Translations under genes and position numbers: made by a program
Notes under the pieces: generated by a model
Databases searched by the model: none
What the model was told of the DNA's origin: nothing
Seen by the model: the letters and a program-made list of their open reading frames with translations, nothing else
Virus record (IMG/VR): IMGVR_UViG_3300032167_000002
Coordinates: 338,312-402,311 of that record
Origin: a virus
Lineage: Duplodnaviria; Heunggongvirae; Uroviricota; Caudoviricetes
Length of the DNA: 64,000 bases
Reading direction: 5' to 3' (one strand)
Shown: in pieces, positions 37,839-43,123 of the stretch
Layout: every line of letters begins with the position of its first letter
How positions within the stretch are numbered: position 1 is the stretch's first letter

Positions 37839-38288
37839 TTAAGTGATTGTATTGCCATAAATAAGCTCCTTTCTCAATTCCATGAGAAGCATACCCAACA
37901 TATTACGACCAGGGATATTAAAACAAGCATCGCAATGACATGAACCCCAGGTATTGTCATGCCACCAATTGCCCTCAATTAACTCTTCATCACCAGTATC
38001 GATGAGCTTTTGAGCTAATTCTTGATCGGCAAATTTTAAGCGCAATCCAAGTTCCATGTAATAAACTTTTACTTTCTCCCAATCAGAGCGCAACTTAACT
38101 GTACGACCCATGCGCTTGGCTTTGCCGGGAGTATCAGCGGCCGCAATAGCCTTACGCTCAGCAATATCCAAAGTCTTCATTGCTTGAAAGAAATGTTCGT
38201 TAGTGGGATACGTAATTCCATCATGGGTAAAGGGAGAGGGATAAAAATTGCTTAAAAATGCGTATTTATTTTCAAATTCGCAAATCAT
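37839..38288 (-). CDS. NADAR (YbiA-like) domain protein.
   Basis: FLSNFYPSPFTHDGITYPTNEHFFQAMK...WGSC...GRNMLGMLLMELRKEL matches the NADAR consensus. Confidence 0.8.
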   Translation of the reverse strand: MICEFENKYAFLSNFYPSPFTHDGITYPTNEHFFQAMKTLDIAERKAIAAADTPGKAKRMGRTVKLRSDWEKVKVYYMELGLRLKFADQELAQKLIDTGDEELIEGNWWHDNTWGSCHCDACFNIPGRNMLGMLLMELRKELIYGNTIT

Positions 38289-38312
38289 TCCGAACCCTCC
38301 TTGTAAATTAAT

Positions 38313-39128
38313 TTAAAAAACTTCGTAAACACCGCCATGTCTGTTCTGGCGGTGCAGGCAATAACCATAGCGCTGAGGCGCAGGTAGATTGATAACTTCC
38401 TTGTGAGTATTTCTCTCATGTGCGGCAGACATCTTTTCCCAAATCTCCATGCTGGGCATAATGCCATCCAGAAGGAAATCGTCAATGGCATCATAGGGAA
38501 TACCAGTCTGCTCTTCATCAGTCTTGCCAGTCATACCGTCTGCAGGATGCTTATGAACCAGATCCACAGGCAACTCCAAATAGTCACCAATAGCATAAAT
38601 CTCTCGAACGGTCAGATTACGCAGAAGCGCAAAGTCACCAGCCAAATCACCATATTTGGTGGTGTAACCGATATGGAACTCAGAGGCATTACCGGTATTG
38701 CAGACACGACCACCAATCATACCTGCAACAGCATATAGAGTAGTCATACGCAGGCGGGCGGGGGTGTTGCAGAAATAGATGCTGTTGTCGTCGTGGAGGT
38801 CAAACAGGTCGGTAGGCAGATCTTCAGTCAGAGTATCGAAAGTTCGACCGATATCAATTTCGTAAGACTTGATACCCAGATACTCGCATACTCTGCGAGA
38901 ATCCTCAATATCAATCTGTACGCCCTGGGGCATCAGTACACCGATCACTCGATCTGCGCCCAGTGCTCGGACGAGCAGGGCGGCCGCTATTGTGGAATCC
39001 TTGCCGCCGGAAATGCCGATAACAGCCTTGGTATTGGGGGTGCCGTTGTCAGCAAAATAGGTCTTGATGAAATTCTCAATGAGCTTGACCTGCTCAGCAG
39101 GATTGAACTCGTAATCCTTAGTTCTCAT
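38313..39128 (-). CDS. nadE: PP-loop ATP pyrophosphatase; likely NH3-dependent NAD+ synthetase.
   Basis: The SGGxDS motif (GISGGKDSTIAAALL) is present, the protein is about 270 aa, and it sits within the NAD gene cluster. Confidence 0.65.
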   Translation of the reverse strand: MRTKDYEFNPAEQVKLIENFIKTYFADNGTPNTKAVIGISGGKDSTIAAALLVRALGADRVIGVLMPQGVQIDIEDSRRVCEYLGIKSYEIDIGRTFDTLTEDLPTDLFDLHDDNSIYFCNTPARLRMTTLYAVAGMIGGRVCNTGNASEFHIGYTTKYGDLAGDFALLRNLTVREIYAIGDYLELPVDLVHKHPADGMTGKTDEEQTGIPYDAIDDFLLDGIMPSMEIWEKMSAAHERNTHKEVINLPAPQRYGYCLHRQNRHGGVYEVF

Positions 39129-39601
39129 TTCTCTTCTCCCTCCAAAACATAAATATATACATCATAGTCCTTATATAAGACTTCTTCGATCATAGTGGAA
39201 ATAACTTCCCAATTTGCTCCACCCAGGCCGCAACCAATACCCATAGGAAATCCAATTTTACTTCCTTTTGGAACAGTTTTAGTAATTTGTCCCAGACAAC
39301 TCCAAAAGGCGTCATAGGAAGTGTATCTTCGGCCGTCATATCCATAATGCTCTTGGGCGAACATATTTATAACTGTTTGTTCGGGACTGACTTCGATATA
39401 CTGACATTCTCCCAGTAATGCTCTTGGACCGCCCCGACTACTGTGATAATCAACCCAACACTCGTATCTGTCAAATACGAGGGGCCATTTATCATGAATT
39501 TGCTTGGCGATGCCAGAGCGCATACGACCCTGGCAATTCACCTGATGACAAATATATTCAACATCTGCTTCGAGCAGATTTCCAGTTTTATACTGAACCA
39601 T
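39125..39601 (-). CDS. Macro domain protein, which binds or hydrolyses ADP-ribose.
   Basis: YICHQVNCQGRMRSGIAKQI...GFPMGIGCGLGGANW resembles the macro-domain fold motifs. Confidence 0.55.
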   Translation of the reverse strand: MVQYKTGNLLEADVEYICHQVNCQGRMRSGIAKQIHDKWPLVFDRYECWVDYHSSRGGPRALLGECQYIEVSPEQTVINMFAQEHYGYDGRRYTSYDAFWSCLGQITKTVPKGSKIGFPMGIGCGLGGANWEVISTMIEEVLYKDYDVYIYVLEGEEK

Positions 39602-41346: not shown

Positions 41347-41916
41347 TGTATCAATTTCCTTTCTTATACATAAATCTTTTTGCCGTCAATGATTTTCCAA
41401 TATAGCCGACCAGATTTGGGATAGGCTCCAGAAGAAGCAAGCCATTCCTCTTTACTGTAAGAGCAAATGATTTTTGACTCTCCCAGCAACAGTCTTTCCG
41501 GAGTTGTAAAAACTGGAACAAAATCTACGCCATCGGCGTCAGCTTCTTCCATTTCTTTCAAAATGAAATCTTCCATTAGTTGCCTCTTTTCTTTCTTGCG
41601 ATGCGGATACGCTTGCTTTCCTGCTTGTTGGGGATATGCTCGCGAGTTGCCAATTCGACTTTTACTCGAGCCTGATAGGCGTGCAATGCCTGGAAATCAG
41701 CATCATTCCAGTCATAATCACCCCAACGGTAGGTCTGACGCAGATGTGCCAAAAGCTGGCGAGTTTTCAAATTTTTCATCTGCTCTTCGGTAAGTAAATC
41801 GCATTCTTTTTCAAAATTACTCATATAATCACTTCCTTTACTTTCTATATATATTATATCATATTTTTTTATAAAAATCAATAAATCCCCTTGGAAGTTA
41901 GTCCAAGGGGATTTAG

Positions 41917-42321
41917 TTATTCAGTAGCATCGTAAATTTTGAGTCCAGTAGAACCATCTTCCCAGTAGGAAATAGAAGTGATAACTCCATCATAGTCTGT
42001 ATAAATAACAAACTCAACGCCATCACTCATTACAAGGAAATAAGTCCAACACGCACATCGAATTTCACTTAGCATAAATATGTCGGGAACCTGCGCGAGG
42101 ACTGTGGGAATAAACGACTCATCCCAGGATTGAGTCTCGCCGCATTCAACCAAAATCGCTTCTGCGCCTGCGGTCAAATCTTCAACCGGATTGTCAGACT
42201 CAGTTACCACAGTTGTCTCAGTGGGATCGAGCGAAGGGGCGATAACTTCGGGTGTGGCACAAGCGCACAAGTTAAGAACCATGAGCAAGGCAAATAACAT
42301 CGCGATAAATCTTTTCATCAT
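41917..42321 (-). CDS. Predicted lipoprotein.
   Basis: A signal peptide with a lipobox-like sequence is present (MMKRFIAMLFALLMVLNLCAC). Confidence 0.5.
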   Translation of the reverse strand: MMKRFIAMLFALLMVLNLCACATPEVIAPSLDPTETTVVTESDNPVEDLTAGAEAILVECGETQSWDESFIPTVLAQVPDIFMLSEIRCACWTYFLVMSDGVEFVIYTDYDGVITSISYWEDGSTGLKIYDATE

Positions 42322-43123
42322 TGATTACCTCGTGGATAGATTTTTGTACTTGGTGAGGAATGCGGATATTTTCAAACACTTCTTGAATATCATCGTGGAA
42401 TACCAGTTCCGCATGACTGTCCAGGGGAGTAGGATCTCGATTGATGATGACTAATTTATCATCACGACCGAAATAATGAGGAAGCATATTTGCGGGCGCT
42501 ACACTCAGAGAGCTGCCAACTACGATGAAAAGGTCGGCATTTCTCGTCCATTGAAGTGCAATATCCCACTCAGTTGAATGTAATCCCTCGCCATATAGGA
42601 CAATATCGGGGCGCACAATACCTTGACATTCGGTGCATAGTGGAATGCCATCGTCATCAAAAATATAGTTGCCGTCATACTCGGCTAAGCAATCAACACA
42701 ATAGGCTCGGTTCATCGTTCCATGAATCGCCGAAACCGCGTAGGAATGTGCGTTTTCGTGTAGTCCGTCAATATTTTGTGTAATGACAGACACAGTCCTT
42801 GTTAGCTGTAACAAAGAGATTTTTTCATGGGCGATATTCGGTGTAGCCTTGCGGAAATCCATATTTTTTTGGATATACTTGAAAAACGCCTCCGGATCCT
42901 CTTCGAGACAGGCATTACTCAGATAGTATTCGGGATCATAGAGGAAGTCCTGCTGATTATATAATCCATTGGTACTGCGAAAATCCGGAATGCCGGAACC
43001 GGTAGAAATACCGGCCCCGGTGAAGAATACGATGTGGCGGGCATCCGCAATCATTGTATTCAATTTATCAATTCTATCGTAGAACTCCATATTAGGACCC
43101 CAGCTGTGCCTGGATGCAGGCAT
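42272..43123 (-). CDS. Sir2-family NAD+-dependent deacylase or ADP-ribosyltransferase.
   Basis: FFTGAGISTGSGIPDFRS is present, and Zn-binding CxxC pairs follow (CVDC...CTEC). Confidence 0.85.
   Translation of the reverse strand: MPASRHSWGPNMEFYDRIDKLNTMIADARHIVFFTGAGISTGSGIPDFRSTNGLYNQQDFLYDPEYYLSNACLEEDPEAFFKYIQKNMDFRKATPNIAHEKISLLQLTRTVSVITQNIDGLHENAHSYAVSAIHGTMNRAYCVDCLAEYDGNYIFDDDGIPLCTECQGIVRPDIVLYGEGLHSTEWDIALQWTRNADLFIVVGSSLSVAPANMLPHYFGRDDKLVIINRDPTPLDSHAELVFHDDIQEVFENIRIPHQVQKSIHEVINDEKIYRDVICLAHGS

Follow-up and report, generated by a model that had tools for sequence, protein, structure and literature searches.

A 64,000-nt stretch of a Caudoviricetes genome (IMG/VR record IMGVR_UViG_3300032167_000002, positions 338,312 to 402,311; hereafter the window, whose positions serve as coordinates) carries at 37839-43123, on the minus strand, three genes, for proteins of the NADAR, macro domain and Sir2 families. 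Here we propose that these genes belong to a phage NAD+ economy built around NARP1, a pathway for remaking NAD+ out of ADP-ribose and nicotinamide, and that NADAR, macro and Sir2 are separate accessories within it, a reading that we hold with about even confidence. We infer all enzymatic activities and substrates from homology, residue conservation, synteny and predicted operons. A preliminary description, made from the letters of the sequence, had placed the three genes in an NAD island as a candidate ADP-ribosylation reversal module, and its coordinates and domain calls were correct. The three open reading frames (ORFs) are all present at those positions on the minus strand, as are all genes of the region. 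They are interleaved with genes resembling nicotinamide mononucleotide (NMN) adenylyltransferase (NMNAT), NadE, NAMPT, YqeY, phosphoribosyl pyrophosphate (PRPP) synthetase and isochorismatase/PncA.

For comparison, 256 fetched loci were scanned with the window proteins, covering +/-10 kb around each match; the co-occurrence counts given below are not corrected for relatedness. Exact and near-exact relatives lie on uncultured phage contigs of about 140-290 kb and share the gene order sigma factor-RNase T-RNA ligase-HD-PncA-Adps-YqeY-Sir2-Namat, continued by macro-NadE-NADAR-phosphoesterase-kinase-phosphoesterase-flotillin-PhoH-lysin. Synteny of this kind across many contigs indicates that the arrangement is not a chance juxtaposition. 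A megablast search of the island against 50,697 phage records returned no match.

Judged by sequence, the "NAMPT" and "PRPP synthetase" genes are the Namat and Adps genes of NARP1. The predicted Namat (nicotinamide ADP-ribose transferase; 39601..41346, minus strand, 581 aa) is NAMPT-like, and its best PDB matches are 9W5X and 9W5W, Namat of Bacillus phage SPbetaL1 (E 1e-100), compared with about 1e-32 for true NAMPTs. Its R36, together with a Phe and a Tyr, aligns with R40, F392 and Y396 of SPbetaL1 Namat, the adenine selectivity clamp that lets the enzyme use ADPR-pyrophosphate (PMC12774641), and it is 30% identical over its full length to Namat of Vibrio phage Gary. Assignment of this gene as the NAMPT of NARP2 was rejected, as the protein is far nearer Namat. 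The predicted Adps (ADP-ribose pyrophosphokinase, PRPS-like; 43603..44451, minus strand, 282 aa) is 42% identical to the validated Adps of phage Gary (E 3e-29), whereas the best true PRPS reaches only E 1e-15, and it scores under every NCBIfam PRPS cut-off. Its VDDIC...FFY motif resembles the Adps donor-site residues D212, D213, I214, C215, F221 and F223 (PMC13586617). It also matches phrog_12872 (547 positions), as does the NAMPT-like protein of the window; the annotation and length of this family suggest a Prs+NAMPT fusion. Together, the Namat and Adps matches therefore point to an island built on NARP1.

NARP1 (43603-44451 and 39601-41346) shares the island with a separate NMN adenylyltransferase (36918-37481). 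No phage with NARP1 and NARP2 together was reported in the 2024 preprint of Osterman et al. Namat retains some NAMPT activity in vitro (PMC12774641), and the island might therefore run the NARP1 and NARP2 routes with a single phosphoribosyltransferase-like enzyme.

A consensus-based prediction splits the island into two operons. The motif TTGATTTTTATAAAAAAATATG[A/T]TATAAT, a promoter-like 29-mer with an extended -10 element, occurs 14 times in the window (13 exact copies and one with 1 mismatch, against 0.07 expected by chance), always on the minus strand, with starts at 5095, 7519, 19767, 20219, 36016, 37516, 41853, 45291, 49367, 50709, 52904, 54582, 57657 and 60252. Across the window a GC-rich hairpin often directly precedes the 29-mer, forming terminator-promoter cassettes that would cut the region into short operons; within the island, every copy lies in an intergenic gap directly after a strong hairpin terminator. 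The first predicted operon runs from the promoter at 45291-45319 through PncA, Adps, YqeY, Sir2 and a 134-aa lipoprotein-like ORF to a terminator at 41915-41882. The second (promoter 41853-41881, terminator 37574-37546) would comprise an 82-aa ORF, a 70-aa ORF, Namat, macro, NadE, NADAR and a 93-aa ORF, and a third begins at the promoter 37516-37544 with NMNAT, followed by further genes. The boundary between the first two occupies 41853-41915, with the hairpin (41882-41915) followed by the 29-mer (41853-41881); all these elements are on the minus strand. Inside each predicted unit, genes abut or overlap: the NadE start and macro stop overlap by 4 nt, the first codon of macro shares bases with the Namat stop codon, the start of the 93-aa ORF and the NADAR stop overlap by 20 nt, and one base separates the YqeY stop from the Sir2 start. 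The gap of 2.3 kb between Adps and Namat contains YqeY, Sir2 and four small ORFs as well as the predicted terminator and promoter; the two genes stand side by side in loci L143, L145 and L218 and in phage Gary.

The macro domain protein (39125..39601, minus strand, 158 aa) is most likely an Adpp-type enzyme of NARP1-AP. In Vibrio phage Gary, Adpp converts ADPR-1''-phosphate, the product of RES-domain (aRES) NADases, to ADP-ribose, which lets NARP1 overcome aRES; a macro gene is present in about 15% of NARP1 operons, and an H24A mutation kills the activity of Gary Adpp (Osterman et al. 2026 preprint from the Sorek laboratory, doi 10.64898/2026.01.28.702374). That study counts as Adpp a macro gene no more than two genes away from Adps or Namat, and the macro gene of the window lies immediately downstream of Namat. 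The same adjacency holds in the large majority of family loci fetched, as well as in the other lineages L212, L218 and L231. Although the Pfam Macro score (18.2 bits) falls under the cut-off of 22, the macro call was kept because this score was overridden by PDB matches (BT1257, 1.3e-10; SCO6735, 5.7e-9; Mycobacterium tuberculosis DarG macro, 3.6e-8), by a PHROG match (phrog_335, E 1.7e-40) and by the fold, which is nearest to the ALC1-like class (TARG1/DarG/Poa1p/SCO6735) and of the SCO6735/BT1257 type. The most similar set comprises five NARP1-associated macros from Table S1 of Osterman et al. (33-36% identity, E 1e-18 to 1e-26), compared with 27-31% identity (E about 1e-7 to 1e-8) for BT1257, DarG and SCO6735. 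Identity to Gary Adpp is 28%, and H19 of the window protein corresponds to Gary H24.

The likeness to NARP1-AP of phage Gary extends to gene content: both phages have Adps, Namat and a macro of the same family whose gene directly adjoins one of the core NARP1 genes, stop and start codons overlapping, both conserve the His that was mutated in Gary, and both have RNA ligase and phosphoesterase genes nearby. They differ in arrangement, the Gary order being Adps-Adpp-Namat, whereas in the window the macro follows Namat, with Adps 2.3 kb upstream in the other predicted operon. Moreover, the window island adds NadE, NADAR, Sir2, PncA, YqeY and NMNAT, and some of its relatives hold the macro without NARP1.

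The macro active site also bears on a different account, in which macro and NADAR would form an ADP-ribosylation reversal kit, NADAR clearing phage DNA of the guanine-linked marks of DarT1-type systems and the macro of the thymidine-linked marks of DarT2-type systems (or the two acting on protein or RNA marks), and would merely be parked in the island. We consider this unlikely, although it deserves serious weight. Searches of NCBIfam and PADLOC matched the macro to DarG alone (E 1.8e-15 and 1.1e-17). Its H19, N22, Q83, G123 and G125 equal H24, N27, Q85, G126 and G128 of SCO6735, so that the essential Gln, His, Asn and Gly of an enzyme that demodifies DarT-treated DNA recur in it; in SCO6735 the Gln is essential, and the protein still removes thymidine-linked ADP-ribose from DNA and rescues cells (Hlousek-Kasun et al. 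2022, PMC9411070). As in the SCO6735/BT1257 macrodomains, with which the window macro has the active-site His, Asn, Gln and two Gly in common, Gln takes the place of the DarG/TARG1 Lys: the position of the catalytic lysine (DarG K80, TARG1 K84) is Gln83, invariant in 34 family members, DarG 'PTKKHW' aligns with 'FAQEHY', and the position of TARG1 Asp125 is Gly. The preliminary description had let its proposal stand or fall with the catalytic residues, and for the macro the outcome is mixed, with the DarG/TARG1 lysine lost and the essential residues of SCO6735 retained.

Other features of the macro speak against the reversal account. It is translationally coupled to Namat and clusters with the NARP1-associated macros. 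Unlike the strongly basic SCO6735, it is acidic (family median pI 5.2; SCO6735 fragment, pI 9.4; BT1257 fragment, pI 8.7), and the DNA-positioning lysines K34 and K89 of SCO6735 are not conserved, being replaced by S29 and G87, with the arginines R28, R91 and R92 nearby. In contrast to DarG, it has no DarT-binding C-terminal domain and no adjoining DarT gene, and neither DarT nor another ADP-ribosyltransferase was found among the roughly 40 window ORFs scanned with Pfam (of about 76 of at least 70 aa). Its context is NAD+ reconstitution and neither a toxin-antitoxin pair nor an SOS regulon. Neither sequence nor fold separates a small-molecule phosphatase from a glycohydrolase of DNA or protein; the context speaks for the phosphatase.

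The NADAR protein (37839..38288, minus strand, 149 aa), a stand-alone member of the YbiA subfamily, is probably an N-glycosidase with an intact active site that frees ADP-ribose from an N-linked adduct, since every NADAR tested, YbiA and T4 gp30.3 included, hydrolyses guanine-linked ADP-ribose on DNA and RNA in vitro. It matches Pfam PF08719 (E 3.6e-28, 99.3 bits versus a cut-off of 35.1) and passes the YbiA-type NCBIfam model TIGR02464 (89.9 bits versus 73.7). Its best solved relative is E. coli YbiA (2b3w, E 5.6e-20), and it also matches Phytophthora nicotianae NADAR (8bau, 3.6e-13). Residues were mapped by HMMER alignment to 8bau and read against Schuller et al. 2023. E31, K38, R62, W70, K74, E105, D111 and W114 correspond to E43, K50, R79, W89, R93, E125, D130 and W133 of the P. 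nicotianae protein, so that all ADP-ribose-contacting residues are present (R93 being replaced by K74), and they are invariant in a 25-sequence alignment. For NADAR, then, the loss of catalytic residues that the preliminary description had named as fatal to its proposal did not occur. Glu105 at the E125 position, shared with YbiA, places the protein in the YbiA subfamily; the BC4488/DarG1 subfamily has Asp there and the T4-type phage group, including AdfN, has His. The Pfam Phage_30_3 score is 21.3 bits, under its cut-off of 36.

Like the phage orphan NADARs (AdfN of T4, Bas32, Bas60; PMC11825919), the window NADAR stands alone with conserved catalytic residues, its domain beginning at residue 6 of 149 so that the basic N-terminal extension of DarG1 is absent, and its gene neighbours are NadE and the 93-aa ORF, with no DarT1. 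It differs from them in lying inside an NAD+ salvage operon. Phage NADARs of three clades neutralise DarTG1 during infection (Johannesman et al. 2025, PMC11825919), which, with the intact active site, favours the reversal account. However, the window protein has neither the DarG1 extension nor the DarT1-linked Asp or the AdfN His; a single phage NADAR in that study fell near the YbiA group, and YbiA itself failed to protect cells from DarT1. The YbiA-like group was almost absent from phages in that survey, yet tblastn with the window NADAR, at an E threshold of 1e-5, picked up homologues in 719 phage records. The reversal account gains from the retention of macro and NADAR together without NARP1 in L021, L098, L039, L066, L070, L169, L170 and L172, and from a NADAR that outlasts NARP1 loss. 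NADAR is kept without NARP1 in L093-L095 and L098, and it therefore appears to have a role of its own, independent of NARP1; in the unrelated contigs L143 and L145 it lies directly before Adps-Namat. The preliminary description's view that NADAR and macro erase marks left by host toxins or defences thus survives in part: anti-DarT phage NADARs and DarG-like macros have been published, but the macro is better explained as an Adpp serving NAD+ regeneration.

The Sir2 protein is most likely, on motif and model evidence, an NAD+-dependent protein deacylase of the canonical zinc-ribbon type. It comprises 272 aa from its likely start (42272..43090, minus strand, in an ORF that extends to 43123), which is the start called in relative L083. 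An exact look-up of the 283-aa ORF found no record of it, probably as the real start gives 272 aa, and a single-protein scan of viral contigs gave no match, so that alignment-based scans were needed. The protein matches Pfam PF02146 (E 1.9e-48) and the structures of Af2 (1ma3, 4e-40) and Sir2Tm (1yc5, 1.3e-39), and it scores 274 bits against a cut-off of 221 in NCBIfam NF001752, the NAD-dependent protein deacylase equivalog. GAGIS, QNID, HG (H123 G124) and the four zinc Cys, features of the canonical deacylases CobB, Sir2Tm and Af2, are invariant in a 30-sequence alignment. A probable nicotinamidase is encoded in the same predicted operon, which would fit a relationship like that of yeast Sir2-Pnc1. 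In yeast, the nicotinamidase relieves nicotinamide inhibition of Sir2. What sets the window Sir2 apart from canonical bacterial sirtuins is that it is phage-encoded, lies between Adps and Namat and is always beside a YqeY-like gene.

Two other classes of Sir2 were considered and rejected. A defence-type SIR2 NADase (Thoeris ThsA, DSR or SIR2-HerA) is at odds with the zinc ribbon and with the PADLOC defence models, none of which matched at E 0.01 or better. Class M ADP-ribosylating sirtuins carry QG in place of HG and have an adjacent macro gene, and a Q-to-H change abolishes their activity (PMC4518038). The window Sir2 has HG, and GSSLxVxPA where class M has GVGx[NT]TP; the macro is ALC1-like, not of the MacroD type, and lies not adjacent but 2.7 kb off in the other predicted operon, so a SirTM-macro pairing was dismissed. 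The suggestion in the preliminary description that the phage itself modifies host targets through Sir2, taken as ADP-ribosylation, likewise finds no support, as every deacylase feature and no feature of an ADP-ribosylating sirtuin was found.

Comparison with relatives indicates how firmly the three genes belong together. In L093-L095, which share the same backbone, PncA-YqeY-Sir2-x-x-NADAR is kept and Adps, Namat, macro and NadE are gone. L098 (2830-10426) has a nicotinate phosphoribosyltransferase (NAPRTase_N + NAPRTase, 407 aa) in place of NARP1, which gives a full Preiss-Handler set (PncA, PncB, adenylyltransferase, NadE) flanked by macro, NADAR and a DUF5662 protein. L018 and L021 retain the macro without NARP1, and L021 retains NADAR as well. 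In L180 and L184-L186, NADAR-x-Sir2-YqeY are packed together 6-10 kb upstream of PncA-Adps-Namat-macro-NadE, and the order in the other lineages L218, L231 and L235 is Sir2 ... PncA-Adps-Namat-macro-NADAR-NadE. In the tightly packed run of L184 (7196-12141), NADAR and Sir2 are separated by the gene of a 178-aa membrane protein of the formate/nitrite transporter family, with an AAA_28 (NadR-kinase-like) protein upstream and a Thg1-like protein downstream of the run. NADAR and Sir2 of L014-L017 were found 6-10 kb upstream; absences within +/-10 kb are therefore weak evidence. Among 80 NADAR-seeded viral loci, NARP1 genes were present in 4-5, a same-family macro in 11 and Sir2 in 2; the corresponding numbers for 80 Sir2-seeded viral loci (+/-10 kb) were 21 for PncA, 14 for NadE, 10-11 for NARP1 genes, 10 for NADAR and 9 for macro. 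A quarter of the sampled Sir2-seeded loci have PncA, NadE or NARP1 genes near homologous phage sirtuins. The flagged genes come and go independently in relatives and are not an obligate module. Given this variation and the division of the genes between two predicted operons, the word "module" in the preliminary description overstates their linkage.

The same comparison bears on a writer-eraser pairing, in which Sir2 would place ADP-ribose on some target of the host or the phage for NADAR to take off again, in the manner of SirTM-macro or DarT-NADAR. Sir2 and NADAR do stay together through rearrangements, both in L093-L095, where NARP1, macro and NadE are lost, and in the tightly packed L180 and L184-L186, and a YbiA-type NADAR can be the antitoxin to an ADP-ribosyltransferase (YarT-YbiA). 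We nevertheless regard the pairing as quite improbable. The Sir2 has HG, not the QG of class M, and passes the deacylase equivalog model; outside the phage family of the window the two are rarely together, as the count of 2 in 80 NADAR-seeded loci illustrates; NADAR occurs with no Sir2 within 10 kb in L003, L009, L012 and L098; and Sir2-NADAR co-occurrence counts are uncorrected for shared ancestry.

The genes around the island raise a further possibility, NAD+-dependent RNA repair, in which Sir2 would act like Tpt1/KptA in taking the 2'-phosphate off repaired tRNA, with macro and NADAR clearing ADP-ribose phosphate by-products. A probable RNA/tRNA repair set surrounds the island on the minus strand (46407-47834, 35033-35578, 34317-35057, 36047-36760, 45570-46229, 48427-49338, 51195-52058 and 53406-54299), consisting of a DraRnl-type RNA ligase, a P-loop kinase, three calcineurin-type phosphoesterases, an HD protein, RNase T and a Thg1-like 3'-5' polymerase. 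Vibrio phage Gary (L096) has similar genes around its NARP1-AP operon, and the macro's class includes Poa1p, which serves as ADPR-1''-phosphate phosphatase in yeast tRNA splicing. Iyer, Burroughs and Aravind (2022, PMC9503650) described neighbourhoods of sirtuin, RNA ligase, kinase and calcineurin genes and proposed an RNA-repair role for most viral sirtuins, in a clade exemplified by Escherichia phage V5, Proteus phage Mydo and Serratia phage BF.

Membership of the window Sir2 in this clade was judged indirectly, by the organism groups in a tblastn search. At E 1e-5, 94 phage records matched. Judging by the ten organism groups listed, which include neither Escherichia nor Proteus nor Serratia, the abundant Escherichia phage V5-type records are not among them; the six groups not listed account for no more than two records apiece. 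With the DraRnl-type model TIGR02306 the ligase scores 69 bits, below the cut-off of 151. DraRnl-type RNA ligase seals 3'-OH/5'-phosphate ends. The heal-and-seal route of kinase, phosphoesterase and ligase requires no NAD+, the flanking RNA repair genes lie in other predicted operons, and the ORFs scanned included no Tpt1/KptA and no 2H phosphoesterase. RNA repair of this kind is, in our judgement, very improbable.

We therefore return to the reading of the island as an NAD+ economy centred on NARP1, and propose a plausible mechanism. NAD+ would be consumed by LigA and Sir2, with host defences adding NADase pressure. Adps and Namat would rebuild NAD+ from the ADP-ribose and nicotinamide released by host NAD+ cleavage. 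The macro would strip the 1''-phosphate from ADPR-1''-phosphate, the RES-domain NADase product, to give plain ADP-ribose for Adps, and might also remove the acyl group of the O-acyl-ADP-ribose made by the phage's own Sir2, again yielding ADP-ribose. NADAR would cleave an N-glycosidic ADP-ribose linkage, either on phage DNA or RNA as an anti-DarT1-like counter-defence or on a small molecule. Sir2 would act as a phage protein deacylase, with the co-transcribed nicotinamidase removing inhibitory nicotinamide, and its product O-acyl-ADP-ribose would be returned to NAD+ via macro, Adps and Namat. NadE, PncA and NMNAT would supply the deamidated and NMN branches.

Several observations weigh against this scheme. 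The nicotinamidase would also remove the nicotinamide needed by Namat, so the logic of PncA is not clean, and 2.3 kb and a predicted operon boundary separate Adps from Namat, which are adjacent in the validated operon. With the sole assayed Adpp the macro shares only 28% identity, and it is equally close, in sequence and fold, to DNA de-ADP-ribosylases (BT1257/SCO6735, DarG) and to Poa1p; most phage macros of its family are not near NARP1, and L018, L021 and L098 keep it without NARP1 within the fetched DNA. YbiA-type NADARs are otherwise known as riboflavin-intermediate N-glycosidases, and YbiA and T4 NADAR gave no rescue of DarT1 toxicity in uninfected cells. In addition, apparent absences in the +/-10 kb loci can be relocations, as for L014-L017.

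A more far-reaching version of the scheme makes NADAR, and perhaps NadE, further plug-ins that, like Adpp, reopen NARP1 against defences that break or divert NAD+ in non-canonical ways. NADAR would then free ADP-ribose from a base-, amine- or histidine-linked adduct or from an unusual cyclic ADPR, and Adps and Namat would rebuild NAD+ from it. We think this improbable, though it is consequential: if true, the hosts would carry an undiscovered class of NAD+-consuming defence.

Of the remaining island genes, all on the minus strand, the one at 38313..39128 encodes an NH3-type NAD synthetase, NadE (271 aa; Pfam NAD_synthase 5.6e-48; TIGR00552 159 bits versus 63.65). The isochorismatase-family protein at 44680..45255 (191 aa; Pfam Isochorismatase 4.1e-22) is a probable nicotinamidase, PncA, with a weak match to the nicotinamidase model PRK11609. 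The NMN adenylyltransferase-like protein at 36918..37481 (187 aa) matches CTP_transf_like (1.4e-7) as well as archaeal and NadM-type NMNAT models, all below cut-off. A YqeY/GatB-like protein (43092..43610, 172 aa; Pfam YqeY 2.3e-7) is encoded next to Sir2 in L002, L006-L008, L083, L090-L095, L180 and L184. Elsewhere in the window, an NAD+-dependent DNA ligase, LigA (10901..12892, minus strand, 663 aa), combines DNA_ligase_aden (1.9e-43) with OB, HHH and BRCT domains. As this ligase is phage-encoded, phage replication would depend on NAD+ and release NMN, which fits the stand-alone NMNAT.

The acidic 93-aa ORF after NADAR (37577..37858, minus strand) is conserved, with no match in Pfam or PHROG, and adjoins NADAR in L002, L006-L009, L012, L083 and L184. 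At L090:12810-13079 and L093:9973-10242 the slot after NADAR is taken by an 89-aa member of the T7 Gp5.9 (RecBCD inhibitor) family. The 93-aa ORF was tried as a Gp5.9-like RecBCD inhibitor and rejected, having no similarity to the Gp5.9-like ORF of L090 and L093; the slot may be a small anti-defence position. Two ORFs of 70 and 82 aa head the Namat operon (41364..41824, minus strand) and gave no family matches; the 82-aa ORF is conserved in relatives, including the NARP1-less L093. The 134-aa ORF (41917..42321, minus strand) has a lipoprotein-like signal sequence and overlaps the Sir2 3' end by 50 nt; it gave no family match, and homologues are present in L002, L006-L008 and L083.

None of the NADAR, macro and Sir2 genes contains an in-frame TAG, which matters because the phage appears to recode this codon. 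In-frame TAG occurs in PhoH (one) and lysin (five), at sites including 28650-28652 and 30542-30544, and relative L006 has Gln at the position of the PhoH TAG. Read as sense, TAG gives full-length PhoH and lysin as in relatives, together with long ORFs in a low-GC stretch at 20-28 kb; long TAG-containing frames are 9217-10236(-), 20362-22455(+), 23823-25748(-), 25736-27217(+) and 27630-30254(-). TAG serves as stop codon in 1 of 29 island genes. This looks like amber stop-codon recoding of a code-15-like type, concentrated in genes of the low-GC stretch. A tRNA scan of the window found none, hence no suppressor tRNA in the window.

Other features lie further from the island. An 826-aa protein at 57724-60204 (minus strand) has major-vault-protein shoulder and repeat domains (MVP_shoulder E 1.7e-24), a DUF2828/DUF7788 protein is encoded near it at 62536-63984 (minus strand), and a flotillin-like Band_7 protein at 32467-33987; together they are an unusual set for a phage. 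A GIY-YIG/NUMOD homing-endonuclease gene (18993-19745) overlaps the start of gyrase B (region 17095-19745, minus strand), and gyrase A lies at 13206-15581.

Co-location of NADAR and macro with phage NAD genes is already published. NADAR was named for its association with NAD genes of this kind, according to the account of de Souza and Aravind 2012 given in PMC11543638, and phage NADARs beside NadM-like and NadV-like genes, as well as macro and NADAR often occurring together in DNA viruses, were described by Iyer, Burroughs and Aravind (2022, PMC9503650). The window resembles the neighbourhoods in these two surveys in having NADAR near NadV-/NadM-like genes in a phage with its own NAD+ apparatus. 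The surveys differ in that they predate NARP1, so that the phosphoribosyltransferase was read as NadV/NAMPT, and no canonical deacylase-type sirtuin, NadE or PncA is described in their islands. Phage NADAR and DarG-like macros were published as anti-DarT factors in 2024-2026. In the literature searched, we found no description of a canonical deacylase-type sirtuin within phage NAD+ salvage islands.

NAD+ depletion is among the commonest bacterial anti-phage strategies, and NARP1, NARP2, NARP3 and NARP1-AP were discovered one accessory gene at a time from operon neighbours. The present island is unusually complete: beside NARP1 and an Adpp-like macro it combines NadE, PncA and NMNAT with a NADAR, a canonical sirtuin and an NAD+-dependent ligase. 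Should the ordinary reading hold, the region would be a well-annotated member of known systems. Its relatives are natural variants that delete or swap parts, and they offer a comparative framework for asking why a phage that fights NAD+ depletion carries an NAD+-consuming sirtuin of its own, and for the main question that the island poses, namely the role of NADAR in NAD+ reconstitution operons.

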